From positions 928 through 64,927 of the forward strand of contig JBHIXH010000008.1 of NCBI GenBank assembly GCA_041984885.1: 64,000 nt of DNA, written 5' to 3'. The translations under genes were made by a program, and so were the position numbers. The notes below the pieces were generated by a model that ran no database searches, had not been told where the DNA came from, and saw only the letters and a program-made list of their open reading frames with translations. Below are positions 46,991 through 64,000 of the stretch, one piece after another. The DNA comes from Gammaproteobacteria bacterium (GTDB lineage: Bacteria > Pseudomonadota > Gammaproteobacteria > Eutrophobiales > Eutrophobiaceae). Every line of letters starts with the position of its first letter. Position 1 is the first letter of the stretch.

Positions 46991-48293
46991 ACCAGCCCTG
47001 CTGCTGCTCTTGCTGTTGATTTCGACGCAACTGGCAGCGTCGCCGGAGATCCAGACGTGGCAGACATCAACCGGTACCGAAGTATACTTTGTGTCGGCAA
47101 CGGAATTGCCCATGATCGATCTACAGGTGTTGTTTCATGCCGGGGGCAGTCGCAATGGCAACAAACCGGGCTTGTCGGGTTTAACGAACCACCTGTTATC
47201 ACAAGGCGCAGAGGGCCTGACTGCGGACGAGATCAGTTACCAATTCGAATCTCTGGGTGCAGAGTTTGGTAGTGATGCCGGCTACGACTCGGCCAGTGTC
47301 AGCCTGCGATCGTTGTCAGCGCAGGATAAATTCAAACCGGCACTGGAGAATCTGATTCGAGTATTGACGAAACCGGATTTTCCTCAAGACGCGATCGACC
47401 GGGAACGTAATCGCATGTTGGTCGGTTTGCAGGCCAAGCAGCAAAACCCGGGAGCGTTGGCCAGTGATGCATTTTATTCCGCTGTGTTCAACGATCATCC
47501 ATACGCACAACCAAACTCCGGCACTGAAGAGTCATTAAATGCGATCACGCGCAAGGCAATTGTGTCGTTTCATAAAAAGTACTACGTCGCTGCTAACGCT
47601 ATCGTTGCGATCATCGGCGATCTGGATCGCCAGCAGGCAGAATCGATCGCCGAACAAGTGACGCAGGCATTACCAAAAGGAAACAAGGCAAAGCCACTGA
47701 CCGAAGTGCAACCGCTGGCTGCAGCGGAACGCGTACATATTGATCACCCGTCGCAACAAACGCACATATTATATGGTCAGACCGGCATCAAACGTGGCGA
47801 CCCGGATTACTTTGCCCTGTATGTCGGTAATCATATTCTCGGTGGCAGTGGTCTGGTCTCGCGGCTGTTTGAAGAAGTACGCAATAAACGCGGCTTGTCC
47901 TACTCGGCCTACAGTTATTTCAGTCCCATGAAGCAGGCAGGTCCATTTGTCGCCGGTTTGCAGACGCGCGCTGACCAGGTAGAAGAGGCGATTCAGGTAT
48001 TGAGTGATAATATCGCCAGATTCGTCGAAGAAGGCCCGACCGAGCAGGAACTGATCGCATCAAAGAAAAATATCACCGGCGGCTTTCCGTTACGCATTGC
48101 CGGTAACAGCAAGATACTCGGCTACCTGGGCGCGATCGGGATCTACGATTTACCACTGGATTATCTGGATACATTTAACGCGAACATTGAGGCAGTCACC
48201 GCTGAACAGGTTCGCGATGCGTTTCAGCGGCATGTATCGCTGGATACATTTGTGACAGTAACGGTTGGACCAGGAACGGTAAACGGAGAGTAG
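46980..48293 (+). CDS. M16 peptidase, non-catalytic partner subunit
   Basis: No HxxEH; carries the R..RGLSY motif; overlaps the upstream gene. Confidence 0.88.
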   Translation: MRVKPALLLLLLLISTQLAASPEIQTWQTSTGTEVYFVSATELPMIDLQVLFHAGGSRNGNKPGLSGLTNHLLSQGAEGLTADEISYQFESLGAEFGSDAGYDSASVSLRSLSAQDKFKPALENLIRVLTKPDFPQDAIDRERNRMLVGLQAKQQNPGALASDAFYSAVFNDHPYAQPNSGTEESLNAITRKAIVSFHKKYYVAANAIVAIIGDLDRQQAESIAEQVTQALPKGNKAKPLTEVQPLAAAERVHIDHPSQQTHILYGQTGIKRGDPDYFALYVGNHILGGSGLVSRLFEEVRNKRGLSYSAYSYFSPMKQAGPFVAGLQTRADQVEEAIQVLSDNIARFVEEGPTEQELIASKKNITGGFPLRIAGNSKILGYLGAIGIYDLPLDYLDTFNANIEAVTAEQVRDAFQRHVSLDTFVTVTVGPGTVNGE

Positions 48294-48295
48294 TT

Positions 48296-48853
48296 CTGTC
48301 AAATAATCGCCGGGGACAGGTACGTTTAATCGCCGGACAATGGCGTGGACGGAAATTATCCATCGTTGATGCCGATGGCGTTCGACCGACGCCGGATCGA
48401 GTACGCGAAACCGTGTTTAACTGGTTGCAGCCGATGGTGGAAGGCGCACATTGCCTGGATTTGTTTGCCGGTAGCGGTGCACTCGGATTTGAAGCCTTGT
48501 CGCGTGGCGCAGCGTTCGTACAGTTTATTGACACAAATGCGGAATGCGTCGCTCAGTTACAGCAAAATGCCACGATGCTGCAGACGCGTGCCTGCGATAT
48601 TCAATGTATGTCAGCGCCAGACTGGCTGGAGAAAACCGGGGCCTGTTTCGATTTGATCTTTATTGACCCGCCTTTTCAGCAGAACCTGATCCCGGCCAGC
48701 CTGGATATCCTGCTGCACAGGCGATGCCTGAAAGAAAACGGACGACTCTATATTGAGAGTGAGCCCGGATTAAAACTCCCGGACGGGCTGCAAATGCTGA
48801 AACAAAAAGTGACAGGAGGGGTACAATACGGCCTGTATTCACGACAACCGTGA
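48296..48853 (+). CDS. rsmD: 16S rRNA m2G966 methyltransferase (probable CTG start)
   Basis: In-frame RLIAGQWRGRKL...RPTPDRVRETVFNW, DLFAGSGALG and DPPF. The only plausible start is CTG 48296 after GGAG. Confidence 0.9.
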   Translation: MSNNRRGQVRLIAGQWRGRKLSIVDADGVRPTPDRVRETVFNWLQPMVEGAHCLDLFAGSGALGFEALSRGAAFVQFIDTNAECVAQLQQNATMLQTRACDIQCMSAPDWLEKTGACFDLIFIDPPFQQNLIPASLDILLHRRCLKENGRLYIESEPGLKLPDGLQMLKQKVTGGVQYGLYSRQP

Positions 48854-48894
48854 ATGAGCGATCCTGAAAATTAATCCAACGGCGAGATTCGGCT

Positions 48895-49377
48895 ATGAAT
48901 ATCACGGCGATATATCCGGGTACTTTTGACCCGGTGACGAACGGGCATCGCGACATTATTGAGCGTGCGGTGAAATTATTTGATCGTGTTGTTGTCGCCG
49001 TAGCTGATGTCAACAGTACAAGCAAATCGACCTGTTTTACCACGGATGAACGCGTTGATATGTTGCTTAAAGTGACAGGTGATCTTGCCAACGTGGAAGT
49101 CATCGCTTTTAATCAACTCGTCACAGATGTCGCGCGCGATAACCAGGCACAGGTCATCGTCAGGGGCTTGCGAGCGGTGTCCGATTTTGAATACGAGTTT
49201 CAAATGGCAGGTATGAACAGAAAGTTATTCCCCGACGCGGAAACCGTTTTCCTGACACCGTCGGATCATCTTAATTGTATTTCATCGAGCCTGGTTCGTC
49301 AGATTGCCTCACTTGGTGGCGACATCAGCCCGTTCGTGCATGCCGATGTAAATGCGGCATTAAAGGAGCGTTTGTAA
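48895..49377 (+). CDS. coaD: Phosphopantetheine adenylyltransferase
   Basis: YPGTFDPVTNGH, RGLR...DFEYE and ISSS. Confidence 0.97.
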   Translation: MNITAIYPGTFDPVTNGHRDIIERAVKLFDRVVVAVADVNSTSKSTCFTTDERVDMLLKVTGDLANVEVIAFNQLVTDVARDNQAQVIVRGLRAVSDFEYEFQMAGMNRKLFPDAETVFLTPSDHLNCISSSLVRQIASLGGDISPFVHADVNAALKERL

Positions 49378-49626
<249 letters not shown>

Positions 49627-49642
49627 AACCGGTTCAGTCTTT

Positions 49643-51325
49643 ATGCGTTTCTCTCTCTTTCCATTAACGCTTTTTTCTTTTCTTTTCGTGTTTGTGCCGC
49701 AGGCGTCTGCTGCCGGTCCCGGTCAGGCGGTGGTTGCCTCGGCACATCCGTTGGCAACAGAAGCGGGCATAACCGTTCTGCAACAAGGTGGTAATGCGTT
49801 TGATGCCGCTGTTGCTGTTTCGGCAGCGCTGGCTGTCGTTGAACCGTACGGTTCAGGTATAGGCGGTGGTGGTTTCTGGCTGTTACATCGTGAAGAAGAT
49901 AAAAAGCAAATAATGATCGATGGCCGTGAAACCGCGCCTTTAGCCGCGCATGCCAATATGTACCTGGATGAAAATGGTAATCATGTAAAAGACAAATCCC
50001 TGAACGGTCCACTGGCGGCAGGTGTGCCCGGCTTGCCGGCCGCGCTCGATCATCTCGCCAGTCAATATGGCAAGTTGTCATTAAACACGTCACTGGCCCC
50101 GGCCATCCGTTATGCGCGAGAAGGTTTTGCCGTCACGGAGCGTTATCGCAAGCTGGCCTCGTTTCGTAAAGATGTCATGAATCGCTGGCCATCGAGCGCC
50201 GCTATCTTTTTGCACAACAGTGAGGTGCCATCACCTGGTCATATGATCATTCAGCAGGACCTGGCCCGGACCCTGGAGTTGATCGCGAAACATGGTCGTG
50301 ACGGATTTTACAAAGGCGATGTCGCGGATAGACTGGTGCAATCCAGTAGTAGTCATGGTGGTATTATCAAACACGAGGATTTGCGGTCGTATCGTGTGCT
50401 CGAGCGTCAACCGATACGCAGCCGGTATCATGACATTAACATCACTTCAGCATCACCACCGTCATCCGGCGGTATCGTACTGGCCCAGGCACTGGGCATG
50501 CTGGAGCACTTCGATCTGGGCTATCAGGAATCGATACAACGCAAGCATCTGGTTATCGAGGCAATGCGCCGTGCCTATCGTGACCGTGCCGAATATCTTG
50601 GTGATCCCGACTTCGTGAATATTCCGATCCATCGTTTACTGGATGCGGAATACATTGAAGGCCTGGCACTCAGTATTGATCCGGAACTTGCGTCCTCGAG
50701 TGAACAACTCGGCGGCCCTGGTCAGTTTGATCAAACCGGTACGTCCACAACCCATTTTTCCGTTATTGATAAAGACGGTAATCGTGTTGCGGCAACGCTC
50801 AGCATTAACCTGCCGTTCGGCTCCGGCTTTGTCGCGGAAGGGACCGGTGTTTTGCTTAATGACGAGATGGATGATTTTTCCAGCAAACCGGACACGCCAA
50901 ATGCATATGGCCTGGTTGGCGATGAAGCGAATCAGATAGAACCGGGCAAGCGTCCGCTCTCAAGCATGACGCCAACGTTTGTCGAGACAGCCGACAAGGT
51001 TGGCATACTCGGCACGCCAGGCGGCAGTCGTATCATCAGTATGGTGCTGCTCGGAATATTACAGTTCGCCGATCACAAGGCACCGATGGCCTGGGTATCA
51101 GCCCCGCGCTATCATCATCAGTATTTACCGGATGAAGTTCAGTTTGAAAAAGGCGGTTTGACCCCTGAAGAACGTTTACAGCTTGCACAGCTTGGTCATA
51201 AGCTGGCAGAAAAAAACCGTAACTATGGCAATATGCAGGCAATTCTATGGTACAAGCCAAAAAATCTTCTCGTCGGTGCCAGCGATCCGCGCGGTGAAGG
51301 TGAAACAAGGTTGACTGCACATTAA
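49643..51325 (+). CDS. ggt: Gamma-glutamyltransferase
   Basis: GGNAFDAA, SGIGGG, nucleophile TTHFSV, LNDEMDDF and RPLSSM. Confidence 0.95.
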   Translation: MRFSLFPLTLFSFLFVFVPQASAAGPGQAVVASAHPLATEAGITVLQQGGNAFDAAVAVSAALAVVEPYGSGIGGGGFWLLHREEDKKQIMIDGRETAPLAAHANMYLDENGNHVKDKSLNGPLAAGVPGLPAALDHLASQYGKLSLNTSLAPAIRYAREGFAVTERYRKLASFRKDVMNRWPSSAAIFLHNSEVPSPGHMIIQQDLARTLELIAKHGRDGFYKGDVADRLVQSSSSHGGIIKHEDLRSYRVLERQPIRSRYHDINITSASPPSSGGIVLAQALGMLEHFDLGYQESIQRKHLVIEAMRRAYRDRAEYLGDPDFVNIPIHRLLDAEYIEGLALSIDPELASSSEQLGGPGQFDQTGTSTTHFSVIDKDGNRVAATLSINLPFGSGFVAEGTGVLLNDEMDDFSSKPDTPNAYGLVGDEANQIEPGKRPLSSMTPTFVETADKVGILGTPGGSRIISMVLLGILQFADHKAPMAWVSAPRYHHQYLPDEVQFEKGGLTPEERLQLAQLGHKLAEKNRNYGNMQAILWYKPKNLLVGASDPRGEGETRLTAH

Positions 51326-51333
51326 ACGGACAA

Positions 51334-52293
51334 ATGTCGGATATAGTTTTTTACGAAGTCTTTGCCGAAGAGGAGTCGGCACTGAAACATTTTCTTCCTC
51401 CGGACATCACTGCTGAGTTTCACGAAGGTACGATTCAGGAAGTGGGCGAGAAACAGTTGCCCGCAAGCATCATCAGTATTCGCACCCAGTCATTGGTACC
51501 GGAAAACTGGACGGGTGATCTGCAAGCCATTCTCACACGCAGCACCGGCTATGATCATTTAGTCTGGTTACATGATCGCCCGGTCCAGATCGGGTACTTA
51601 CCAGACTATTGTGCCCGCTCCGTTGCCGAGCATGCGTTGCTTCTCTGGACCGCATTACTGAAAAAGTTACCGGCGCAGCAGGCGTCATTTGCAACGTTTA
51701 ATCGCAATGGCCTGACCGGCCAACAGTTATTGAATAAATCCCTGCTTGTTATCGGTGTTGGCAAGATTGGTTATCACGTTGTCCAGCTGGCTCAAGCGGT
51801 CGGTATGCATGTGGCAGGTATGGATATCGAGCAGAAGCATGATAATGTGAATTATGTTGATCAGCATGAAGATTTGAGTCGCTATGACGTGATTGTCAGC
51901 GCGATGAGCCTGAACGAAAACAACATTCACTATTTCGATCAACAATTTTTTGACCGGGTAAAGCCCGGTTGCCTGTTTGTGAATATTTCACGCGGCGAAC
52001 TGTCTCCCTGTTCGGTGCTGATCGAGAACCTGTCAAACGGACGGCTTGCCGGTGTGGCCCTCGACGTATTTGAAGATGAAAACAGGCTGGCTGTGCAGTT
52101 AAGAAACAGGGCGACAAACGAAAGTCATGATACAGCGGTACGTGAACTGTTAACGCTGGCGAGCATGCCAAACACGATTTTGACACCACATAATGCCTTT
52201 AACACCCACGAGGCAACACTACTGAAATCTGAACAGTCGCTGCAACAGCTCATTCACTACCTGCAGCATGGCAGGTTTATCTGGTCGATGTAA
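51334..52293 (+). CDS. D-isomer-specific 2-hydroxyacid dehydrogenase family protein
   Basis: RSTGYDH, GVGKIG, NISRG, LDVFEDE and TPHNA. Confidence 0.85.
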   Translation: MSDIVFYEVFAEEESALKHFLPPDITAEFHEGTIQEVGEKQLPASIISIRTQSLVPENWTGDLQAILTRSTGYDHLVWLHDRPVQIGYLPDYCARSVAEHALLLWTALLKKLPAQQASFATFNRNGLTGQQLLNKSLLVIGVGKIGYHVVQLAQAVGMHVAGMDIEQKHDNVNYVDQHEDLSRYDVIVSAMSLNENNIHYFDQQFFDRVKPGCLFVNISRGELSPCSVLIENLSNGRLAGVALDVFEDENRLAVQLRNRATNESHDTAVRELLTLASMPNTILTPHNAFNTHEATLLKSEQSLQQLIHYLQHGRFIWSM

Positions 52294-52300
52294 CGGGAGG

Positions 52301-52516
52301 TTAAATCTCTTTTGGCGGTTTTCGACCGGTAGTAAGAATATGAAATATCATTGGTATGGTTAATATCGCACCGACAACAATCATCGCAATGCCATAATTT
52401 TCAAATTGTATGGATTTCGGGATCAGATTTGTCCCGGCAAAATGTTCGGCCATCCCGACGCCGGCCAGGATACAACCAATACCATCGAGTGCTATATACA
52501 GCGGTGGAATCTTCAT
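52301..52516 (-). CDS. Small two-TM membrane protein
   Basis: Two hydrophobic segments and an upstream GAGG RBS; fills the intergenic gap. Confidence 0.65.
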   Translation of the reverse strand: MKIPPLYIALDGIGCILAGVGMAEHFAGTNLIPKSIQFENYGIAMIVVGAILTIPMIFHILTTGRKPPKEI

Positions 52517-52617
52517 AAATACCTCTTGTTTTTCTTGTTATTAAACCAGGATAGCCCGTGTAGATGCTGCTGTTACCAGTTGCAGTACTGCGGCAAATTT
52601 CAAGAATGTTCGGTTAT

Positions 52618-53109
52618 ATGTTAACATCACGTATCTCGTTCTCTCGGGAAATCATTCAAACTATTGGTTTTGTTATCTATTTTATCAAACAAAAAGTAGG
52701 CTTTGCTTTTGTGTTTTTTTTACTGCTGTCGACCCGGGTCGAGGCAGACGCCCGCCTGAGCACGGATACCGACGTTGCTTCAGCAGGATACTTTGTCCTC
52801 GACTGGAGCAGCAATATGTCGGGGCCGTTTCTGTTGCAACAATCAAGTAGTCCGGACTTTTTCAGCGTAGATTCGGAATCCAGTCATACAAACAGACAAA
52901 CCACGATCACCGGTCTGGATGACGGTACTTATTTTTACCGGGTTCGGGATGCCACTGGTTTGGTCAGTAACGTTATCAGCGTGGAGGTTGCGCATCATTC
53001 ATTAACGAAGGCCTTTTCATTTTTTATCCTCGGGTGTTTTCTGTTCGTTGTCTTGCTCTCTGTGCTGTTGCACGCACAGCGCGCACTAAATCCTGAACAA
53101 CGTGCCTGA
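52618..53109 (+). CDS. Membrane-anchored FN3-like protein (start uncertain)
   Basis: Hydrophobic leader, LDW...ITGLDDGTYFYRV FN3-like pattern and C-terminal TM. Confidence 0.6.
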   Translation: MLTSRISFSREIIQTIGFVIYFIKQKVGFAFVFFLLLSTRVEADARLSTDTDVASAGYFVLDWSSNMSGPFLLQQSSSPDFFSVDSESSHTNRQTTITGLDDGTYFYRVRDATGLVSNVISVEVAHHSLTKAFSFFILGCFLFVVLLSVLLHAQRALNPEQRA

Positions 53110-53127
53110 TAACGTTGAACCTGTGTT

Positions 53128-54555
53128 ATGTCCACGCCTGTTCTTTCTTCACAAACATCACTGCTGATTCTGGCTGTTTTCTCGGTCGTCTGGATCGGTT
53201 TTGGTGTTTATCTTGGTCGTAAGAATAAAACGCTGACCGACAGCATGGTCGCTGGCAGAAATGTCGGGCTGGCCCTCGCCACAGCTACGGCAATGGCAAC
53301 CTGGGTGACCAGCAACACAACAATGACAGCACCGCAGCTGACCTATCAACTGGGAATCTGGGGAATGTTTGGATATTCTCTCGGCGCCATTGGTTTAATC
53401 CTGTTTGCGCCGCTTGCCGTTCGTATTCGCAAGTTGTTACCGGAAGGTTACACCTCGGGTGACTTTATCCGTTATCGCTATGGCGATCTTGCCTGGCGTA
53501 TCTTTCTGATTATCTCCTTTTTCTATGCTTTTGGCTGGTTGATCAGCCTCGGTATGGCCGGCGGCATTCTGGTGAATGCACTCAGTGGCATACCCTACAC
53601 GATTGGTATGAGTGTCATCTTGTTTACCTGTGTGTTGTATACACTGTTCGGTGGCATGCGTGCTGTTATAGCGACTGACTTCGTACAAACATTAATCATA
53701 GTGATTGGCCTCATCATTATTGCAGTCCAGGTAATTGATTCTCCCGGACTGCATGAAATCTATACCACGGTGGCCGATAACAGGCCGATGTTGTTAAGCT
53801 TGCTGTTTCCGGCGGCCATCATGTTTTTATTCAATAACCTTTTCTTCGGCGTCGGTGAAATCTTTCACTCAAACGTCTGGTGGTCGCGCGCATTTGCATT
53901 TGCCGGCGATGTAGGCGGCAAGGCCTATTTGCTGGCCGGTATTTTCTGGTTGCCAATCCCGGTCGTGGCCGGGTTTATCGCGCTTGCAGCACCGGCATTG
54001 AATCTGTCTGTTCCTTCAGCCGATATGGTCGGACCCCTGGTGGTTGCACAGATACTTGGTGTGGCCGGCAGCGTAATTGTGTTCATCATTATTTTTTCTG
54101 CACTGGCCTCAAGTCTTGACTCGTTGTTGGCCGCCACCTCCGATTTGATAACGCAGGATATTTATCGCGGTCATATAAACAGGCGCGCGACGGATCAGGA
54201 CTGTTTCAGGGCGAGCCGTTTGATCATCATATTGCTGGGCGTGACCACCTGGTTACTGTGTCTGCCCAGAATCACCACGCTGGCATCATTGCTGTATTTT
54301 ACCGGTGCATTTGTTGCCAGCACGATATGGCCAATACTGTTTGGACTCTATTTCAGGAAAGTCAGCGGTAATGCTGCGGCAGCGGCCATGTTTACAGGAA
54401 CGGTTATTGGATTGGCCGCGTATTTTGTTATCGGCTTCTATGTGGCAGCACTGGTGTCCTGTGCGGTTTCATTGCTGGTGATCACAGCCTGGTCACGGAT
54501 AGCGCCAATAGACTTCAGTTTTAGCCCCGCAACTGCGACGGCAGTGTCGTCATGA
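53128..54555 (+). CDS. Sodium:solute symporter (DUR3-like)
   Basis: About 13 TM, AGRNVG, RYG, GGMRAVIATDFVQ and ASSLDS.L.A.S....DIY. Confidence 0.88.
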   Translation: MSTPVLSSQTSLLILAVFSVVWIGFGVYLGRKNKTLTDSMVAGRNVGLALATATAMATWVTSNTTMTAPQLTYQLGIWGMFGYSLGAIGLILFAPLAVRIRKLLPEGYTSGDFIRYRYGDLAWRIFLIISFFYAFGWLISLGMAGGILVNALSGIPYTIGMSVILFTCVLYTLFGGMRAVIATDFVQTLIIVIGLIIIAVQVIDSPGLHEIYTTVADNRPMLLSLLFPAAIMFLFNNLFFGVGEIFHSNVWWSRAFAFAGDVGGKAYLLAGIFWLPIPVVAGFIALAAPALNLSVPSADMVGPLVVAQILGVAGSVIVFIIIFSALASSLDSLLAATSDLITQDIYRGHINRRATDQDCFRASRLIIILLGVTTWLLCLPRITTLASLLYFTGAFVASTIWPILFGLYFRKVSGNAAAAAMFTGTVIGLAAYFVIGFYVAALVSCAVSLLVITAWSRIAPIDFSFSPATATAVSS

Positions 54556-54671
54556 TTTCATTTTTCTTCTTTAGTCTTTTAGTGCAGGTGGCGCTTGGTT
54601 TGACGTTGCTGTCACCGGTTATATTAATTTTTCTGCTAATCCGGGATAAAAACAGAGGCGAGTTATGGTAA
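54552..54671 (+). CDS. 39-aa single-TM membrane peptide
   Basis: MISFFFFSLLVQVALGLTLLSPVILIFLLIRDKNRGELW*. ATGA overlap with the SSS stop; its end overlaps the next ATG. Confidence 0.7.
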   Translation: MISFFFFSLLVQVALGLTLLSPVILIFLLIRDKNRGELW

Positions 54672-55744
54672 GAGAAACAGTAGTTAAGGAAATTGCCGAG
54701 TTTGAGCGCAAGCGACCGGATGTGTATGGCGATGCACATCCAAAAGCATTACTGCGCAAGATTATAGAAAATGGTGACCACCTGCAGCCACTCGCCAGTC
54801 AGCATATTCTTTCGTCGGATCAGTTCGATAAAGACACGTTACTGCAGCTGTTTCGTCTTGCCGCCAAGTATGAAGGTAACCCGGAACGCTTCAGCACCCC
54901 GTTACAGGGAAAAATACTGATTAGTGCGTTTTATGAACCGAGTACTCGAACCCGCTTGTCGTTCGAAAGCGCATGGCACCGACTGGGTGGCGACATAATG
55001 TCGATCACTGACCGCTCCACGACCGGAATCGCCAAGGGAGAATCATTAAGAGATGTTGGCGAGATGTTTAATAACTATGGTGACTGTGTTGTGTTGCGTG
55101 ACCGGGAAGCAAAGTCACTCTACAAGATGGTCGACAGTTTACGCATACCGATCATTAACGCCGGTAATGGTATTGATGAACATCCGACGCAGGCGATGTC
55201 GGACCTGTACACGATTTTTAAGTGGTATCCGGATCTGGTTGATGCCGATCTGGAATCGGGTAAAAAGATCCGCGTCGGTGTCATAGGGGTGCCGAGCAAA
55301 ATGCGTACAGTGCGGAGCCTGTTGAAAATATTCTCCAAATTTCCGTCAGCGTTTTCTGAAGTAGTCATCATACATGACGGTGGCAGCCAGATTTTCGATC
55401 CGGGTCAGAAAGAACAGCTGGTTGAAGCCGGCTTGAGTATTTCGGATACAACCGAATTTAAAAGCACATTGCCTGAACTGGATGTGATTTATATTAATTC
55501 AATCGCCTGGATCGGCGACAACTATGAAGCGTTCCAGCAGGAAATCTCACTGGATAAGGATTCAAACATAAAGGATAACGCGATCATCTTACATCCACTG
55601 GCACGCGGCGATGAATTATCTACAACTCTCGATCAAACCCATCATAACTGGTACTTCTCACAGGCCCGTGGAGCCGTGTTTTTACGCATGGCTCTTTTAA
55701 CCTGTGTGGTTGAAAGAACCGAACGCGTGATGGACGTATTATAA
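54665..55744 (+). CDS. ATCase-superfamily carbamoyltransferase with altered acceptor site
   Basis: FYEPSTRT, KGES, HPTQ and HPLAR are present; YxTRxQxER is missing. Confidence 0.85.
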   Translation: MVRETVVKEIAEFERKRPDVYGDAHPKALLRKIIENGDHLQPLASQHILSSDQFDKDTLLQLFRLAAKYEGNPERFSTPLQGKILISAFYEPSTRTRLSFESAWHRLGGDIMSITDRSTTGIAKGESLRDVGEMFNNYGDCVVLRDREAKSLYKMVDSLRIPIINAGNGIDEHPTQAMSDLYTIFKWYPDLVDADLESGKKIRVGVIGVPSKMRTVRSLLKIFSKFPSAFSEVVIIHDGGSQIFDPGQKEQLVEAGLSISDTTEFKSTLPELDVIYINSIAWIGDNYEAFQQEISLDKDSNIKDNAIILHPLARGDELSTTLDQTHHNWYFSQARGAVFLRMALLTCVVERTERVMDVL

Positions 55745-55767
55745 AAATAACCAGGGAAAAATAATTT

Positions 55768-57777
55768 ATGTGTGGTATTGCAGGCGTAATGCATATCGAT
55801 GCTGATCACGGTGTTGATGCACAAACATTGGTCAATATGGCAGCGATTCAGCATCATCGTGGTCCGGACGGCTTCGGATATCGGGTACTGGAAGAAGACG
55901 GTGTTGGTTTCAGTCATGCGCGCCTGTCGATCATTGACCTGAACGAACAACGCGCACGTCAACCCTTTATGTCGCCGGATAAAAATCTATTACTGTCACA
56001 TAATGGCGAATTCTATGATTATCAAAGACTGCGCGCACAGATGACCGCGCGCGGTTCGCGATTTAAAACGAAAAGTGATTCTGAAATTATTTTGCATCTT
56101 TATCCACGCTACGGCATGTCACCGATGCTGCATCACCTGCGCGGTGAATTTGCGTTCGCCTTGTATGATCGCAAGGAGCAATCGTTGTTTCTGGTGCGCG
56201 ATCGGTTTGGTATCAAACCACTTTACTGGTGTGAAACTGCCAACGGCGTGGTGTTTGGTTCCGAATTAAAAGTCCTGTTTGCTCATCCGGACGTGCAACG
56301 AAAATTTTCAGCGACCGGTGTTTATCATCAGCTAATGCAGATCATGGTGCCGGGCACGACGGCGTTTGCCGGTATTCACCAGGTGAAACCGGGGCATGTT
56401 GTGCGTATTAAACGCAATGAGAAAAAACTCGAGGTTTATGATCAAAAATACTGGGACATGAATTTTCCCGAAGCCGGAGCGCATGATATTAGCAACGAAC
56501 AGGAAGCAATTGATGCCGTCGGTGATCAATTACTGGCCGCCGTCATGCATCGTCTCGAAGCCGATGTGCCGGTCGGCAGTTATTTATCCGGTGGTATTGA
56601 CTCGTGCAGCATACTTGGCCTAGCCGCGGCATCAAGCCAACAACCGGTCAAGGCGTTTACAATCGGTTTTGATGACAAGCAATACGATGAGAGCCATATT
56701 GCAACCGAGATGGCCGAGTCATGCAGTGCGGATCAGGACATCCTGCGGTTGTCCGGCAACGAGTTGTATGGCTTCTTTGAAGAAACACTCTGGCATACCG
56801 AACGCACGATCTATAACACGTTGGGTGTTGCCAAGCTTTTAATGTCACGGCATGTGAAAGAAGCAAACTATAAAGTCGTATTAACCGGAGAAGGTTCGGA
56901 TGAGTTATTCGCCGGCTATCCTTCCTTTCGTCGTGATATGTTTTTATATGGTCTGGATGACCTGGATAGTGACGAACGTGATTTATGGCACCGCGCTTTA
57001 AACGACAGTAACAAGCTGTTTACCGGTTCGATGTTGCCTGCCGATATGGTGAACGCACCATGCTTCGAAAATCTAATCGGCTTTACACCCACGTGCATTC
57101 AGCCATGGCTGGCCTGTGCCGAACATGTACCCGGCCTGTTATCGGAACAGTATCGGGATGAAACCAGTGATTACGATCCTGCCGCCAGCATTCTTGAGCA
57201 ACTGGATATCGAACAGATGCGTGGTCGTCATGCGCTGGACAAGGCGCAGTACGTCTGGTGCAAAACCATGCTGGAAGGCCAGATACTGACCTGGGGCGGC
57301 GACCGGGTCGACATGGCCAACTCGATGGAAGCGCGACCGGCGTTTCTCGATCATCATCTGGCGGCCACCGCTGTGCGAATTCCGCCAAGCCTGAGAATCA
57401 AGGGTAAAACCGAAAAATTTGTTTTGCGTGAAGCGATGAAAGGCTTGTTGCCGAAGACATTATACAAGCGCGAGAAGTTTGCGTTTATGGCACCACCCGC
57501 CTACACGGACAAGACAAAGTGGCAACAGATGAAATCACTGGCGGACACGTATTTGAGTAAACAGGCGATTGAAGATACCGGAATACTCAATGAGGCCGGG
57601 GTCAATGAACTGTTTCAACGGCACGAATCCGCTGACATCAGTGCCGCTGATCAGGTACAACTGGATGCCGTGATCAATCACATGATTGGAGTGCAGGTCT
57701 TGCATAAACATTTCATTCAAACCGATGTGCCCGCGCAAGCGGCAGCCAGGGCAGAAGAGCTGGGTTGGGCCGCCTGA
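55768..57777 (+). CDS. Asparagine synthase (glutamine-hydrolysing)-family amidotransferase
   Basis: N-terminal MCGIAG, HRGPD, HNGE, RDRFGIKPL, SGGIDS and TGEGSDE. Confidence 0.92.
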   Translation: MCGIAGVMHIDADHGVDAQTLVNMAAIQHHRGPDGFGYRVLEEDGVGFSHARLSIIDLNEQRARQPFMSPDKNLLLSHNGEFYDYQRLRAQMTARGSRFKTKSDSEIILHLYPRYGMSPMLHHLRGEFAFALYDRKEQSLFLVRDRFGIKPLYWCETANGVVFGSELKVLFAHPDVQRKFSATGVYHQLMQIMVPGTTAFAGIHQVKPGHVVRIKRNEKKLEVYDQKYWDMNFPEAGAHDISNEQEAIDAVGDQLLAAVMHRLEADVPVGSYLSGGIDSCSILGLAAASSQQPVKAFTIGFDDKQYDESHIATEMAESCSADQDILRLSGNELYGFFEETLWHTERTIYNTLGVAKLLMSRHVKEANYKVVLTGEGSDELFAGYPSFRRDMFLYGLDDLDSDERDLWHRALNDSNKLFTGSMLPADMVNAPCFENLIGFTPTCIQPWLACAEHVPGLLSEQYRDETSDYDPAASILEQLDIEQMRGRHALDKAQYVWCKTMLEGQILTWGGDRVDMANSMEARPAFLDHHLAATAVRIPPSLRIKGKTEKFVLREAMKGLLPKTLYKREKFAFMAPPAYTDKTKWQQMKSLADTYLSKQAIEDTGILNEAGVNELFQRHESADISAADQVQLDAVINHMIGVQVLHKHFIQTDVPAQAAARAEELGWAA

Positions 57778-57802
57778 GCGAGGTGAATAAATCAGAATTG
57801 TT

Positions 57803-59041
57803 ATGGAACACAGTATTGACATAAAGCGTATCGAGCAGGATCTGTACCAGCTGGCACAGATTGGCTACAACGATGAGGACAAAGGCATCTATCGGCAGGG
57901 TTTCAGCGATGCCGATATGCAGGCGCGTAAATGGTTTGCCCATAATTGTGAGTCCAAAGGTTTAACCACAAAGATGGATGGTGCCGGAAATGTGGTCTGC
58001 CGCTATGGCGACCCGGATGCGCCGGCGATTCTGATCGGCTCACATATTGACTCGGTTCCATGCGGCGGCATCTTTGACGGTACGCTCGGCCTGATCGCAG
58101 GGCTCGAGTGTATTCGGGTGATAAAGGAAAATAATATCAAGCTGAAACACCCGGTTGAAATCATTGCGACCAGCGAGGAAGAAGGACGTTTCGGTGGCAT
58201 GCTCGGCGCACAGGCGTTGACCGGACACCTGCGTCTGGACTGGCTGGAGTCAGCCAGGGATGCAAGCGGCGAATTGTTAAAAGAAGCAATGGCGAGCTGT
58301 GGGCTCGACTATCGTCAGGCCATGCATGCAAAGAAACCGGAAGGTTCGGTGATTGCCTTTATCGAATTACATATCGAACAGGGGCCGGTACTCGAGGCGG
58401 AAAAGAAAACCATCGGTGTCGTTGAAGGTATCTCCGGTGTGTTTAAATGGCTGGTCAAGCTGATCGGCAAGGCCGATCATGCCGGTACCGCACCAATGAA
58501 CCTGCGCAGTGACGCGTTTATGGGCATGGCCGACTTTGCTCATGAAATTTCCAGGATCATCGATGAAGAAGGCACGGATAAAAGCCGATTGACGATAGGG
58601 CATGTCGATCTTAAACCGGGCTACGCACATACGGTGCCGGGTGAAGCCGACTTTACCCTGGTAGGGCGTGACATGTCTGAAGAAGTGATGCGTAACCTGG
58701 CCGGTGCCTGCGACAAGGTATTATCGTCAATAGCACGTAAACATCGATTGCAGTTTGAATATAATCAAATGAGCTGGCTGGCGCCGAGCTATTGTTCAAC
58801 TGACATAGTGAACCTGATTGAAAAAACCACGCAGGACCTGGGCTACAGTTATATGGTCATGCCGAGTGGTGCCGGCCATGATGCACAGTTTTTCACAAAG
58901 ATTGCGCCGACCGGCATGATCTTTATTCCCAGCGTTGGCGGTGTCAGTCACGCGCCGGATGAATGGAGCCACTGGGAAGATGTCGAGAAAGGCGCCAATG
59001 TGTTATTGCACAGCCTGTTAAACATAGATGCGGCCAACTAG
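57803..59041 (+). CDS. M20 Zn amidohydrolase (N-carbamoyl-amino acid/allantoate amidohydrolase family)
   Basis: GSHIDSV..GG.FDG, EEEGRF, ELHIEQG, HAGT and SGAGHDA. Confidence 0.9.
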   Translation: MEHSIDIKRIEQDLYQLAQIGYNDEDKGIYRQGFSDADMQARKWFAHNCESKGLTTKMDGAGNVVCRYGDPDAPAILIGSHIDSVPCGGIFDGTLGLIAGLECIRVIKENNIKLKHPVEIIATSEEEGRFGGMLGAQALTGHLRLDWLESARDASGELLKEAMASCGLDYRQAMHAKKPEGSVIAFIELHIEQGPVLEAEKKTIGVVEGISGVFKWLVKLIGKADHAGTAPMNLRSDAFMGMADFAHEISRIIDEEGTDKSRLTIGHVDLKPGYAHTVPGEADFTLVGRDMSEEVMRNLAGACDKVLSSIARKHRLQFEYNQMSWLAPSYCSTDIVNLIEKTTQDLGYSYMVMPSGAGHDAQFFTKIAPTGMIFIPSVGGVSHAPDEWSHWEDVEKGANVLLHSLLNIDAAN

Positions 59042-59063
59042 CCCGGATGTCTGAAAACCCAAA

Positions 59064-59318
59064 CTAGAAGTATCGGATCACCAGATAAAGAATCGCGACA
59101 ATACAGGCGATAATGCCTGGTATGGCGATTCGCATGATCGACCTGGTTTTCTCAATCGCCTGGCGTTGCAGACCGATCGATTCCTCAATCTGTTTCTTCG
59201 CCCGTTCTACCTGTTCCTGTGTGAGGGCGATATGTTTTTCCTGGTTTTCAATCGCGCGTAACTGGTTGTCACGTATTTCCAGTAAAATCTCGCGGACTTC
59301 AGGTTCTTCAGTGGCCAT
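59064..59318 (-). CDS. Small coiled-coil protein with C-terminal TM
   Basis: Helical E/Q/K/R-rich body, hydrophobic tail and AGGTG RBS. Confidence 0.6.
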   Translation of the reverse strand: MATEEPEVREILLEIRDNQLRAIENQEKHIALTQEQVERAKKQIEESIGLQRQAIEKTRSIMRIAIPGIIACIVAILYLVIRYF

Positions 59319-59351
59319 GTTTCACCTGTCCGGGCTGATAGTTTATCCGGG

Positions 59352-60113
59352 TTATGATTTCAGACGATAACCGGACCTGAAAATCCAGGCAATGATGATC
59401 AGGCAAGTGATCAGAAACAGGCAGATCATGCTGAAACTGATAATGACATTGACATCAGCGATACCGTAAAAACTCCAGCGAAAACCGCTGATTAAATAAA
59501 CAACCGGGTTAAACAGGGTGATTGTGTGCCAGAGTGGCGGCAACATCGAGATTGAGTAGAAACTCCCCCCGAGAAATGTCAGTGGCGTCACGATCATCAT
59601 TGGCACGATCTGCAGTTGCTCAAAACTCTCGGCCCAGATGCCAAGAATAAACCCGAACAGGCTGAAGCTGAGCGCAGTCAATACAAGAAACACAAACATT
59701 AAAAACGGGTGCTGCACCTCGTAATCGACAAACAGACGTGCTGTCAGCAAAATCAATATACCGAGAATGACCGACTTGGATGTGGCTGCTCCGACAAAAC
59801 CGATGACAATCTCAATCCACGAAATCGGTGCTGACAAGACTTCATAAATCGTCCCGGTAAACTGCGGCATATAGATCCCGAACGAAGCGTTCGAAATGCT
59901 TTCGTTTAATAACGACAACATTATCAGGCCTGGAATGATGAACGCGGCATAACTGACGCCATCGATCTCGCCGACACGTGAGCCGATTGCGGCACCGAAT
60001 ACAATAAAATACAAGGACGTCGATAGCACCGGAGAGGCAATGCTCTGCATCAGAGTGCGTGCCGTGCGCTTCATTTCAAAAAAGTAGATAGCCTTGATTG
60101 CGTGCAGGTTCAT
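59352..60113 (-). CDS. ABC-2 type permease (YadH-like)
   Basis: [16 protein letters not shown] and [11 protein letters not shown]. Confidence 0.88.
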
Positions 60114-60114
60114 T

Positions 60115-61035
60115 TTAGTTTTTAACCAGGCTGACAAAGATCTCTTCCAGCGAGCTCTCGCTTGAGCGCAGATCGCGGAAATCGATGTCCTGTTCGTTCA
60201 GGCGTCGCATGATCATCGCGATACCGGTATGTTCATGTTGAATATTAAATGTATAGACAATCTCATTGCCGTCTTCGCTCAGTTCGAGAGATAAATCCGA
60301 CAGTGCAGCAGGTAACGAGTCAAGTGGTGTTTGTAACTGAAGATGCAATTGCTTTTTGCCGAGCTTTTTCATCAGTTGCTGCTTTTCGTCGACGACAACG
60401 ATACGGCCCTTGTTAATGATGCCGATGCGATCGGCCATTTCCTCGGCTTCCTCGATATAATGCGTGGTTAATATGATGGTGACACCGCTTTCTCTTAGAG
60501 TGCGTACCATATCCCACATATCGCGGCGAAGTTCGACGTCGACGCCGGCTGTCGGTTCATCAAGAAACAGGATCGTCGGTTCATGTGACAGTGCTTTTGC
60601 GATCATCACGCGACGTTTCATGCCGCCTGACAAGGCCAGGATCTTTGATTGGCGTTTATCCCAGAGAGACAGTTGCCGCAGTATTTTTTCTATGTAATCC
60701 GGGTCGGGAGCCTTGCCAAACAGGCCGCGACTGTAACTCACCGTATCCTGCACCGTTTCGAACATATCAGTCGACAGTTCCTGCGGTACCAGCCCGATGC
60801 GTTGGCGGGCCGCACGATAATCAGTCTGGATATCGTGACCGTCGGCCATGACTGTACCGGACGAGGCATTGACGATACCGCATATGATACTGATCAGTGT
60901 CGTCTTGCCGGCACCATTCGGCCCAAGCAGGGCAAAGATTTCGCCGCGTTTTATCTCGAGATCGACCTGGTCCAGCGCGGTAAAACCGGACGCATACGTT
61001 TTGCCAAGTCGTTCGACAGAGATGATCGAGCTCAT
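60115..61035 (-). CDS. ABC ATPase (YadG-like)
   Basis: [25 protein letters not shown] and TTHYIEEAE. Confidence 0.9.
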
Positions 61036-61069
61036 GTGAAAATACTAAAAAAGTGAAATGCGGAGACTA

Positions 61070-62089
61070 CTAGAAACTTTCAGCCCAGCGAAGCCCGAGA
61101 TTCAAAATTTTCTGGATTAGTGCCGGGTATTCAACCCTGGCCGCTTTCGCCGCGCTGGCGAGTTCTTCATCACTGGAAATATCCGGGTTCGCATTTGCTT
61201 CAAGAAAATAAAAGTTATTGTCTTTATCCAGCCGGTAATCGATACGCGCGTAACCGCTGAGATTGAGTGCCCGATAGATACGCCGTGAAGTACGTTCCAG
61301 CTTTCGCTTGACGTCGTCGGCCAGGCGTGTGGCCGGGCCGAGGCGAATGCCATATTTCTCCTGGTAATCCAGATTCCATTTCACTCGTTCGGTGGCAATT
61401 GGCATCGAGTCAGGTGGTAACTTGTTCATAAACAATTCCCACGGCGGCAAGACCTGTAATCGTTGATTGCCAATCACGCTGACACTGATCTCGCGTCCGT
61501 CAATATACTCTTCCGCGATGGCAGAAGTGTGAAAGTTGTCATGCACAAAACTCACGCGTTTGGCCAGCGCGTCCGCATCGTTAACAATTGATGCCTGCGA
61601 GATGCCGGCCGAGGCCTCCTCCAGGTGTACCTTGACGATGAGCGGGAACTTCAACTTGCGTGTTAATTTAACCTTACGGTTAACGGGGAAACTTTGAAAT
61701 CCAGGCGTACGTACACGGTGATAAAACAGGATCTTTTTTGATAAGGCCTTATCGGACGCCAGCACGAGACCGCGAGGATTACAACCGGTAAACGCCGTGC
61801 GGAGTAATTCCAGGTAACTGACAATATGCTGATCATATATCGTCTGGTAACGAAACTGATCAACCAGGTTAAAAACGATTGTGGGTTTATAGTCGGCGAG
61901 ACGGTCACGTAATGGCACCAGTTCATCCCAGAGTCCGATTTGTTGCCATTCATGCCCGAGCTTGTCGAGCGCGGCAGATACATCGGCCGCGGCCTTGAAT
62001 AATTCGAAATCTTTTTCCGATGCCTTGTCGGCATTTTCCGGGATTACGCCGGATTCAGAAACGGCAATCAGGACACGTTGTTTTTTCAT
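61070..62089 (-). CDS. ATP-grasp amide ligase, D-Ala-D-Ala-ligase-like but divergent
   Basis: DK, IVK, EEYIDGRE, GYARIDYR and LEANANP are present; the Ddl N-terminal GGxSxE is missing. Confidence 0.82.
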   Translation of the reverse strand: MKKQRVLIAVSESGVIPENADKASEKDFELFKAAADVSAALDKLGHEWQQIGLWDELVPLRDRLADYKPTIVFNLVDQFRYQTIYDQHIVSYLELLRTAFTGCNPRGLVLASDKALSKKILFYHRVRTPGFQSFPVNRKVKLTRKLKFPLIVKVHLEEASAGISQASIVNDADALAKRVSFVHDNFHTSAIAEEYIDGREISVSVIGNQRLQVLPPWELFMNKLPPDSMPIATERVKWNLDYQEKYGIRLGPATRLADDVKRKLERTSRRIYRALNLSGYARIDYRLDKDNNFYFLEANANPDISSDEELASAAKAARVEYPALIQKILNLGLRWAESF

Positions 62090-63099
62090 TACACGGCGTG
62101 CCACTTTCGGCTACGCAATGTTTGCACGGAATGCACGGCGAGCAACAGCGCGCATTCGGTTTTCAGTTTGTTCTTGGAACCGACAGCACGTAACCGTTTT
62201 TGTTTACTGCGTAGCATGATCTGTTTTAAAACCTGATCAACGACAAATTGATATTCACCCGTCCAGCGCGCGACTAGTTCACGAATCTCGACTCGATATT
62301 GCCGCAGGAATGCATGTGCGGTCATGCCGGCGCGGGTCTGATCCGGCGTCACAAACAGGCGTTCCAGATCGGGATCAAACGACTCCGGCGCATCGACGGC
62401 ATAGTGTTCACGTTTTTGGTCGTAATAATCGCGCAATGTATGTTTCAGTGTAGACAAACGTAACGGTTTTTTTCTGTTACCCACCTTCGGTTTGACACCG
62501 GCCAGCTCTTTCATGAGCGCATCGACGTATTCCAGTTTTTCCAGTGCCGGCCAGTTTGCGTATTTTTTTCGCCAGGCCGAGCGTGGTTTTAACCATACGG
62601 CAAACGTCTCGGCGAAATCCTCGTCCGGATGGCACTGGGCATACCAGCCTTCCAGGTGCTGGACATGATTGCGCGAGGTCGGGTTCGGTCGATAAAAATC
62701 CGGATAGCGCTGGGTCGAACGACCGAACAGTTGTTGCCAACGGCGCCGTCGATGGACCTGGTAGGCGACCTGAATCGCGTGACCGGTTTCATGCCGGAGC
62801 AACTGCATACATTCACGCCGGGAACCACCTTCCACTTCATAGATTTCGCGCCGTTCCAGCTTCATTAGACGCGGATGGGCAAGGTAAAAAGGAATGCCGA
62901 TACCTGGGGATTCTTTCGGGGAGAACCATTCATCGGACAGCCAGCAATGTGGCTGTAACAGAATATCGCGTTCGGCTAGTTCGTCATGCAGGCGGTAGAC
63001 GCATTCTTCAATCCAGGTTTCTTCAATCTGCAGATCCAGATCGCTGAGACGCATGTTTAATATGCGCTGTAGTGGTAGATGATCCAGAGCTTTGCTCAT
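62089..63099 (-). CDS. Putative zinc-binding metallopeptidase (zincin-like)
   Basis: HETGH (HExxH) and downstream YAQCHPDEDFAETFA. Confidence 0.8.
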   Translation of the reverse strand: MSKALDHLPLQRILNMRLSDLDLQIEETWIEECVYRLHDELAERDILLQPHCWLSDEWFSPKESPGIGIPFYLAHPRLMKLERREIYEVEGGSRRECMQLLRHETGHAIQVAYQVHRRRRWQQLFGRSTQRYPDFYRPNPTSRNHVQHLEGWYAQCHPDEDFAETFAVWLKPRSAWRKKYANWPALEKLEYVDALMKELAGVKPKVGNRKKPLRLSTLKHTLRDYYDQKREHYAVDAPESFDPDLERLFVTPDQTRAGMTAHAFLRQYRVEIRELVARWTGEYQFVVDQVLKQIMLRSKQKRLRAVGSKNKLKTECALLLAVHSVQTLRSRKWHAV

Positions 63100-63297
63100 G
63101 CATATGCATGATAAACCAGGAGTCGAATCTGATACAGTTCAGGGAATGCTTCACCTGTTTCTATTCCGCAACTGGATAATTTCCGATGGGTAGAAAAGGA
63201 GTTGTCGATACGTATAAAAAAAGACGGCCGGGCAGGCGACGAAAAGACGCCAGCGGCAGGATATCAACCGAAAGGGTGCACTAGCCTGGTGAAGGAT

Positions 63298-64000
63298 TTA
63301 GTTTGGCAGTTCACCGCACCGGTATCTGTCGATTGTGTCCTGGTAGTAGCCAAGTTTTTTAACGGCCATTTCACGCGCTGACCAGCCTGCCGCATAAGTG
63401 CGGGTTTCCCTTTTCTTTTTGTTATAGAGATCCTTGTCCTTTAACAAGCGCATCACTTTTTCGCAAAAGTCTTCTGTCGTTTCCTCGGCAATCAACGCAC
63501 CCTTTTCCGGGGACAGTATATCCACTGTGCCAAGCCTGGCCGTGGATACGACCGGGACGTTTTGCGCCATCGCCTCAAGCAGAACCAGTCCCTGGGTTTC
63601 CGTGCGCGAGGCAAACACAAAAATATCGCCAGCGGCATAGCAATCGAGTAATTCGGTTTTGCGGTCAAGGTAACCGACAAAATTCACATGCTGGTCCAGG
63701 TTCAACGTGCGGCCCAGTTGCTTTAAATGATTCAGTGCAGGGCCTTCTCCGGCAATTACCAGCAGGATATCAGGAATGTCATTACGCAGACGCGCAACCA
63801 TGTGCAAAAGAAAGTCGATGTTTTTTTCATGTGCGGCCCGACCAACGTGCATCAACACGGGACGATCCACCGGTATCTGGTGCTTGTCACGAAAAGCAGT
63901 GCCATCACCTTGCGTAAAAAATTGCTCATCCATTCCGGTCGGTATGATCTGCATGGGTGTAGAGACACCATATTCATTCAAAATATCAAGCATCGCCTGC
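63298..64000 (-). CDS. Glycosyltransferase family 4 (diacylglycerol glycosyltransferase-like; 5' end outside the window)
   Basis: IIPTG, VGR..EKN and ETQGLVLLEAM. Confidence 0.82.
   Translation of the reverse strand, partial: QAMLDILNEYGVSTPMQIIPTGMDEQFFTQGDGTAFRDKHQIPVDRPVLMHVGRAAHEKNIDFLLHMVARLRNDIPDILLVIAGEGPALNHLKQLGRTLNLDQHVNFVGYLDRKTELLDCYAAGDIFVFASRTETQGLVLLEAMAQNVPVVSTARLGTVDILSPEKGALIAEETTEDFCEKVMRLLKDKDLYNKKKRETRTYAAGWSAREMAVKKLGYYQDTIDRYRCGELPN

Follow-up and report, generated by a model that had tools for sequence, protein, structure and literature searches.

The closest described counterpart of the locus treated here is the cluster for the osmolyte N-acetylglutaminylglutamine amide (NAGGN), which comprises a MarR gene (PA3458), asnO (PA3459), ngg (PA3460) and an aminopeptidase gene (PA3461). 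According to the available part of PMC8070244, the substrate that an AsnB-type enzyme of this operon amidates is an N-acylated derivative of glutamine, the operon also encodes a hydrolase, and a divergently encoded MarR protein represses it until osmotic stress occurs. The subject of the present study is a cassette of six genes found in a window of 64,000 nucleotides (the whole stretch of DNA analysed) of contig JBHIXH010000008.1, from a genome assigned to Gammaproteobacteria bacterium (GCA_041984885.1). This cassette encodes an FN3-like membrane protein, a DUR3-like symporter, a peptide of 39 aa, a carbamoyltransferase (CTase), an AsnB-type amidotransferase and an M20-family hydrolase. The carboxamide finish that its AsnB-type enzyme would give to an N-blocked amino-acid derivative, the presence of a hydrolase in the operon and a MarR-family gene that is often adjacent recall the NAGGN cluster (PMC8070244, available part). 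In contrast, the N-blocking enzyme of the cassette would be a carbamoyltransferase and not the GNAT/ATP-grasp protein Ngg, for which the best match in the genome of the window scores 32.7 against a cut-off of 569. The cassette also differs in that its operon includes a putative dedicated symporter complex, and in that its AsnB-type protein stays under the cut-off of the NAGGN amidotransferase model (AsnO, TIGR03104; 311 versus 570.1).

The other point of reference is a solute. N-carbamoyl-L-glutamine 1-amide (CGA) is a known compatible solute of Ectothiorhodospira marismortui, described in 1991. It is compatible with the chemistry proposed below, and it is the only named candidate for the solute. 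The available part of PMC7824335 names CGA and does not mention its genes.

The features of the cassette suggest that it is devoted to the synthesis of an N-carbamoyl amino-acid amide, its uptake and its recycling by hydrolases, a reading to which we give about an even chance of being right. We infer all the substrates, the direction of the steps and the physiological role presented here for the cassette. The enzyme families involved are all known; what is new is their combination, the specificity of the CTase, the two small transporter partners and the existence of two cassette variants.

Conservation of the cassette in two variants

A scan of one genome per species revealed 393 stretches that encode a relative, and the best 80 were analysed (variant A). 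In all 80 loci, the genes for the symporter, the CTase and the AsnB-type protein are collinear on one strand, and this constancy indicates that the order is more than chance; the synteny expected in an earlier annotation made from the letters of this DNA (the sequence-only reading) is therefore found for these three genes. The FN3-like gene lies directly 5' of the symporter gene in 67 of the 80 loci according to ORF (open reading frame) clustering, and in 61 according to tblastn. Among the matches listed, relatives of the CTase with 66-76% identity occur in Kangiella, Pleionea, Aliikangiella, Idiomarina, Pseudidiomarina and Aliidiomarina, and also in Thiothrix, Sedimenticola, Pseudohongiella, Ketobacter and Pseudoalteromonas. 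The named holders in these lists are marine or halophilic genera, and the public names of the relatives are generic (aspartate carbamoyltransferase and asparagine synthase), which bears out the statement in the sequence-only reading that similar gene sets occur under such names in marine bacteria. Cassette DNA also occurs in seawater metagenomes. At E <=1e-90, 24 of 400 sampled genomes of this class encode the CTase (one of them is the unpublished G265), which amounts to 20 of 309 genera, and the enzyme is found in neither of the two other sampled genomes of the window's own family. Of the 80 variant-A loci, 31 have a MarR-like gene no more than 8 kb away, and in L007, L008 and L083 this gene directly adjoins the cassette; the sole relative of this MarR in the genome of the window is 33% identical and is encoded on another contig.

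The variable component is the M20 hydrolase. Of the 80 loci, 36 have its gene at a distance of at most 8 kb from the cassette, and five arrangements are seen: immediately downstream in the same orientation, as in the window (15 loci), downstream after inserted genes (3), directly downstream on the opposite strand (6), spaced on the opposite strand (1), and upstream and divergent (11). No copy is present at the other 44 loci. When five genomes lacking the gene at the locus were searched with the M20 protein of the window, three of them yielded a copy with 60-62% identity elsewhere, in an unrelated context, and in two it was not found anywhere. The unrelated context applies to the unlinked copies in genomes of the Idiomarina type. 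The M20 hydrolase is an accessory but linked member of the cassette, and the six-gene unit originally claimed stands only in part: its core is conserved, and the M20 gene does not belong to that core. Since some genomes keep the core with no such hydrolase detected, the synthetic pair that spends ATP is the constant part.

Variant B is represented by 18 loci (L101-L118) from the class sample, with CTases of 53-64% identity. In these loci, the order is FN3-like protein, M20 hydrolase, isochorismatase-family hydrolase, symporter, peptide, CTase and AsnB-type protein (for example, L103:4313-11484). The CTase, the AsnB-type protein and both hydrolases are encoded in 18/18 loci, and the symporter and the FN3-like protein in 17/18. 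L101 contains the four enzymes, and neither its symporter nor its FN3-like gene was detected. The variant-B CTases retain all the signature motifs, with the loop YIN[AS]IAW, and the M20 proteins are 45-49% identical to that of the window. The isochorismatase-family hydrolase was found neither in the 80 variant-A loci nor in the genome of the window. A MarR-family gene directly adjoins nine of the 18 variant-B cassettes, and the names that appear beside variant-B proteins, among the matches listed, include Ectothiorhodospiraceae bacterium, Thiohalobacter, Thiogranum and Thiohalophilus. The logic of making, importing and recycling one compound, put forward in the sequence-only reading, gains support from this variant, in which the M20 and isochorismatase-family hydrolases accompany every cassette.

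Enzymes and candidate importer

The family assignments first given to the symporter, the CTase, the AsnB-type protein, the M20 hydrolase and the FN3-like protein hold in comparisons with profiles, PDB relatives and folds. The CTase consists of the Pfam domains OTCace_N and OTCace, and its best PDB sequence matches are aspartate carbamoyltransferases (ATCases), with 33-34% identity. Its model also has the ATCase fold (TM about 0.8), but as the model is of moderate quality (pLDDT, the confidence score of the prediction, is 68.2), it was used for fold assignment only. The fold, the domain pair and the STRTR, HPTQ and HPL-x-R motifs are common to this protein and PyrB (EC 2.1.3.2). Contrary to PyrB, the cassette CTase shows INSIAWIGD instead of RxQxER, holds an N-terminal extension of about 45 aa (conserved among its relatives), lacks a pyrI/pyrC context, and scores under every curated cut-off for ATCases and ornithine carbamoyltransferases (OTCases): 184.9 versus 236.95 for TIGR00670, 181.6 versus 263 for NF002032, and 86.9 versus 280.85 for the OTCase model TIGR00658.

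The alignment of the CTase with the products of pyrB and argF of the same genome reveals that it retains STRTR, R145, HPTQ, R214-T215 and HPLAR, while INSIAWIGD occupies the place of RLQNER in PyrB and of DVWASMG in ArgF. RxQxER is the loop that binds the aspartate side chain in ATCases, where R229/Q231 of the Escherichia coli enzyme hold the aspartate beta-carboxylate. This loop is gone from every CTase aligned, and STRTR and HPTQ are invariant in the 15 variant-A and the 18 variant-B-centred sequences. The OTCase motifs DxxxSMG and HCLP are replaced as well, in contrast to ArgF, which holds DVWASMG and HCLP. On the other hand, the Arg-Thr pair R214-T215 presumably corresponds to R167/T168 of the E. 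coli ATCase, which hold the alpha-carboxylate of the acceptor. We infer that the acceptor would be an alpha-amino acid other than aspartate, with a side chain that is probably uncharged. The side-chain pocket looks neutral, and the analysis gave no support to Glu or Gln, the acceptors proposed in the sequence-only reading.

The genome of the window (97.7% complete, 2.5 Mb) encodes a canonical PyrB elsewhere, on contig C3, that scores 305.9 bits and passes its cut-off, and a canonical argF beside an aminotransferase gene. The separate pyrB that the sequence-only reading wished to see confirmed is thus present, and its proposal of a non-canonical CTase, distinct from the housekeeping ATCase, agrees with the scores, the lost loop and the existence of both canonical genes. 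In L001:1462-3697, the pyrB gene overlaps by about 110 nt a following ORF of 456 aa whose product is a putative partner of the dihydroorotase type (PyrC-like).

Among 1.84 billion representatives, the CTase family corresponds to one 50%-identity representative (500.6 bits), and the next full-length relatives reach at most 288 bits and 45% identity. We regard the cassette CTase as a new carbamoyltransferase subfamily. Its sister subfamilies, with 32-45% identity, bear generic names only. Three sister CTases with 40-41% identity (P0281, P0282 and P0284), one of them from Actinophytocola, retain an NS[IL]-type loop and HPLAR, and in more distant CTases (P0287-P0300) STRTR is altered and the KGES loop is missing.

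The AsnB-type protein passes the broad model TIGR01536 (426 versus 267.1) and stays under the cut-off of the E. coli-type AsnB model (279 versus 499). Its best PDB relative is the hydroxyamidotransferase 7ylz, followed by AsnB. The protein holds the MCGIAG N-terminus with the catalytic Cys2, the HNGE and SDSE motifs and the PP-loop SGGIDS; as the glutaminase and PP-loop motifs are intact, it should be active as a glutamine-dependent amidotransferase. It is one of four paralogues of the genome that exceed the TIGR01536 cut-off, and the other three are encoded on contigs C68, C22 and C44.

The M20 hydrolase, the single member of its family in the genome of the window, passes two models of carbamoylase-type enzymes (TIGR01879, 368.2 versus 204; NF006771, 524.5 versus 399), and among solved structures it is closest to the N-carbamoyl-L-amino acid hydrolase 3n5f (259.5 bits). 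The nearest substrate-defined model is that of ErtE (N-carbamyl-L-glutamate amidohydrolase), on which the protein nevertheless remains under the cut-off (378.3 versus 520), as it does on that of AllC (278 versus 597.75); in addition, no hydantoinase is encoded nearby. The variant-B M20 reaches a similar ErtE score (381.6). The extra hydrolase of variant B holds an isochorismatase domain. The nearest named models are those of the biuret amidohydrolase BiuH (75 versus a cut-off of 370) and RutB, both far from being reached, and the nearest solved relatives are ureide-type cysteine hydrolases and N-carbamoylsarcosine amidohydrolase. In spite of this kinship, the protein fits no named equivalog. 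It could be the deamidase that the earlier scheme lacked.

The symporter belongs to the SSF family (PF00474, 96.3 versus a gathering threshold of 22.8), and its scores lie under all NCBIfam equivalog cut-offs. Among solved structures, it is closest to the urea-proton symporter DUR3 with 116.9 bits, compared with 51.8 for the next family, represented by a choline transporter, and this wide margin upholds the DUR3-like label. The cassette protein differs from DUR3 in its length (475 versus 704-773 residues), in a match that is divided into two stretches, in the company of two small membrane proteins and in its setting, a genome with neither a urease alpha subunit nor a urea carboxylase over the cut-off. 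DUR3 is not known to have such partners.

The FN3-like protein has no Pfam or NCBIfam match. Its AlphaFold2 model (pLDDT 84.2) consists of an N-terminal helix, which corresponds to a signal or transmembrane segment, a sandwich of seven strands (residues 64-142) and a C-terminal transmembrane helix (147-174). FN3 domains are among its best PDB fold matches, with weak E-values (2e-4 to 3e-3). A complex was modelled from the symporter, the 39-aa peptide and residues 61-181 of the FN3-like protein, with an own alignment for each chain, and the FN3-like protein scored 0.75 against the symporter, compared with 0.00 for the best of three controls. In the calibration, 58 of 80 solved complexes scored at least as high, as did two of 110 mismatched pairs, counts that hold only roughly because the own alignments and the three chains differ from the calibration jobs. 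The runs showed a contact agreement of at least 96% and a partner pLDDT of at least 76, and the modelled contacts join the C-terminal helix to symporter residues ~226-242 and 436-449, and the sandwich to loops on one face. The FN3-like protein is a probable accessory subunit of the symporter, whose binding the model supports.

The 39-aa peptide also lacks Pfam and NCBIfam matches. It shows a conserved Pro in the middle of its helix and a C-terminal D-x(4-7)-[LIV]-W end, and P22, D32 and W39 are invariant in 32 sequences. Although tblastn detected it in only 17 of the 80 loci, a motif search found a frame with the D-x(4-7)-[LIV]-W-stop ending, at or near the start of the CTase gene, in 76 of 79 loci, and together with the invariant residues this indicates that the peptide is encoded by a real gene. 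It is proposed that the symporter, the FN3-like protein and the peptide form a three-part importer, coupled to Na+ or H+, whose genes are translationally coupled to those for the CTase and the AsnB-type protein.

Proposed pathway, physiological role and alternatives

In the proposed pathway, carbamoyl phosphate would serve the CTase as donor, and an L-amino acid (aspartate excluded) would be carbamoylated on its alpha-amino group to an N-carbamoyl amino acid. The AsnB-type enzyme would then amidate the carboxylate that is still free, with ATP and with ammonia derived from glutamine, to give a small, uncharged and urea-like N-carbamoyl amino-acid amide. The symporter complex would import this compound or recapture what leaks from the cell. 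Where the hydrolases are present, the cysteine hydrolase of variant B, and then the M20 enzyme, would return the amide to the amino acid, CO2 and NH3. M20-type carbamoylases require a free carboxylate, and this need would account for the second hydrolase found with the M20 protein.

The same genes have also been weighed as a system for nitrogen scavenging, in which the DUR3-like complex would import an external ureido compound, the hydrolases would release NH3 and the CTase would work in the phosphorolytic direction. The importer is invariant (80/80 loci) and has a urea carrier as its nearest solved relative, and both hydrolases are of types typical for ureide breakdown. This catabolic role is nevertheless considered unlikely, because the hydrolases are dispensable (as described above for M20), the amidotransferase that consumes ATP and glutamine is invariant and keeps its catalytic motifs intact, and the genome of the window holds no carbamate kinase over the cut-off to harvest carbamoyl phosphate, nor a urease alpha subunit or a urea carboxylase. 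Strict sigma-54 patterns match in 0/79 upstream regions, and Thiohalobacter and Thiohalophilus, which hold variant B, are termed chemolithoautotrophs in the titles of publications; both observations also count against catabolism. Use of urea and harvesting of carbamoyl phosphate, considered as separate functions, were discarded on the same absence of the three enzymes.

An importer could also serve to supply a scarce amino acid or amine from which the enzymes would make a metabolite other than an osmolyte, such as a signal, a nitrogen store or a cofactor precursor. The translational coupling of importer and enzymes, the high conservation of the latter across orders (66-76%) and the patchy distribution (24/400 genomes) would all suit this possibility. 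However, the neighbourhood of the cassette shows no other conserved biosynthetic gene in the 80 variant-A and 18 variant-B loci, and the accompanying hydrolases would reverse the formation of the product, for which reason we regard precursor import as improbable. The invariant pairing of the CTase with the AsnB-type protein is shared by another scheme, otherwise founded on chemical analogy, in which the latter would adenylate the ureido oxygen and ammonia would replace it, yielding an alpha-guanidino acid, so that one enzyme would do the work of argininosuccinate synthase and lyase. Amination of ureido-type carbonyls is indeed carried out by PP-loop amidotransferases, GMP synthase being an example. 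Nevertheless, no AsnB-family member is known to catalyse it, M20 carbamoylases act on ureido and not on guanidino groups, and the genome contains an ordinary argG, so that this scheme is given very little credit. The idea that the pair replaces argininosuccinate synthase was dropped on account of the same argG. Finally, the public annotation would make of the cassette a second pyrB and a second asnB located by chance beside an unrelated transporter gene. This is hardly credible in view of the collinearity in 80/80 loci, to which the 18 variant-B loci are added, the loss of the aspartate-binding loop in all aligned members, the scores under the ATCase cut-offs and the presence of a canonical pyrB.

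If the cassette indeed makes an N-carbamoyl amino-acid amide, the most likely role of the product, by analogy with the NAGGN cluster, would be that of a nitrogen-rich compatible solute, an assignment that is tentative and falls short of an even chance. Its holders would then include protein-degrading heterotrophs and sulfur-oxidising autotrophs. It is somewhat doubtful that the cassette is the genetic basis of CGA or of an undescribed N-carbamoyl amino-acid-amide solute, with recapture by a three-subunit transporter and dedicated hydrolases, in hundreds of marine and halophilic gammaproteobacterial species, and the identification of the product with CGA itself is rather unlikely. With regard to other osmolytes, no ectoine synthase was found in the genome of the window. 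The osmoadaptation genes listed for an Idiomarina in the available part of PMC12279604 are only choline-dependent betaine genes and general amino-acid genes. Both observations speak for a role as osmolyte, as do the lack of Ngg in the genome of the window, the marine or halophilic character of the named holders and the cassette DNA in seawater.

Several points weigh against the synthesis of such an amide and its use as a solute. Ectothiorhodospira is not named in the best 120 rows of lists with 7748, 1419 and 1562 hits, although this is not evidence of absence. Ectoine synthase is encoded in one of the 24 cassette genomes, when about three would be expected (51 of the 400 genomes exceed the cut-off overall); it is not clearly anti-correlated with the cassette, and the co-occurrence is uninformative. 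MscS is encoded beside only two of the 18 variant-B loci. The osmolytes predicted for Thiohalobacter are trehalose, sucrose and glycine betaine, and the cassette is unmentioned in the available part of that source (PMC6504805). With respect to the enzymes, the isochorismatase-family hydrolase may be a second decarbamoylase rather than a deamidase, because its relatives cleave ureido groups, and the alpha-carboxylate role of the Arg-Thr pair of the CTase is tentative, since it depends on the numbering of the E. coli ATCase. In addition, transcribing the genes for synthesis together with those for breakdown seems futile if activity is not regulated post-translationally, and an importer as invariant partner fits the uptake of a precursor equally well as the recapture of a product. 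A description of the cassette was not found in the literature searched, and the listed sequencing runs that contain it include no RNA run.

Should the reading of the cassette as a pathway for an N-carbamoyl amino-acid amide be true, a widespread family annotated as aspartate carbamoyltransferase would gain a new reaction, and about 400 species genomes would need corrected pyrimidine and asparagine annotations. Moreover, CGA, so far a solute without genes, would gain them, or else marine bacteria would prove to have a new nitrogen-rich solute. It would also provide a new accessory-subunit architecture for solute:sodium symporters and a simple way to make N-carbamoyl amino-acid amides with two genes.

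Anatomy of the locus and neighbouring features

The six ORFs of the cassette are co-oriented, and the ORF list of the window matches exactly the spacings of 18, -4, -7, 23 and 25 nt given in the sequence-only reading. The ORF for the peptide overlaps the stop of the symporter gene by 4 nt and the start of the CTase gene by 7 nt. The start of the FN3-like gene admits several positions: 52618, used in the earlier annotation, is an in-frame ATG within the ORF, and 52564 and 52606 are also possible. The G+C content of the cassette stretch (46-53%) is similar to that of its surroundings. Neither pyrC, pyrI, pyrR nor any other pyr gene is found beside the CTase gene among the annotated genes of 45614-63993, as had been stated for pyrC, pyrI and pyrR when the locus was first read.

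Coordinates of the cassette genes in the window and basis of their assignment
Feature	Position	Strand	Length	Basis
FN3-like bitopic membrane protein	52564..53109	+	181 aa	ORF list; without family match
DUR3-like solute:sodium symporter	53128..54555	+	475 aa	PF00474
Single-transmembrane peptide	54552..54671	+	39 aa	ORF list, conserved motif
Non-canonical ATC/OTC-family carbamoyltransferase (CTase)	54665..55744	+	359 aa	OTCace_N + OTCace
AsnB-type glutamine-dependent amidotransferase	55768..57777	+	669 aa	TIGR01536
M20 hydantoinase/carbamoylase-family amidohydrolase, probable N-carbamoyl-L-amino acid hydrolase	57803..59041	+	412 aa	TIGR01879, NF006771

The search of 51800-59600 with Rfam revealed no riboswitch or leader. 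A PhrS match below the threshold (25.8 versus a gathering score of 37, E 0.0028) at 59441-59502, on the minus strand, is probably due to chance; it is located beyond the operon, in the ABC-2 gene or at its end. Scans for sigma-70 promoters and terminators gave counts at or under those expected from shuffled sequences. Just 5' of the cassette, a divergent ORF of 71 aa (52301-52516, minus strand) with a plausible ribosome-binding site encodes a hydrophobic product, and the space left for promoters between this ORF and the first cassette gene is only about 50-100 nt.

The flanking genes are excluded from the unit because their synteny is limited to one related locus, L005, which is the only one to share the gamma-glutamyltranspeptidase (ggt), 2-hydroxyacid dehydrogenase, ABC-2, ATP-grasp and peptidase genes. 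Upstream of the cassette, on the plus strand (45614-52293), are encoded a pair of M16 peptidases, a cytidylyltransferase-like protein, the gamma-glutamyltranspeptidase and a D-2-hydroxyacid dehydrogenase, and the last two, syntenic in L005 only, are probably unrelated to the cassette. On the other side, a convergent cluster on the minus strand (59352-63993) encodes an ABC-2 permease, an ABC ATPase, an ATP-grasp protein similar to D-Ala-D-Ala ligases, a Peptidase_Mx zinc peptidase and a GT4 glycosyltransferase. In this cluster, the ATP-grasp gene overlaps that for the Peptidase_Mx protein.

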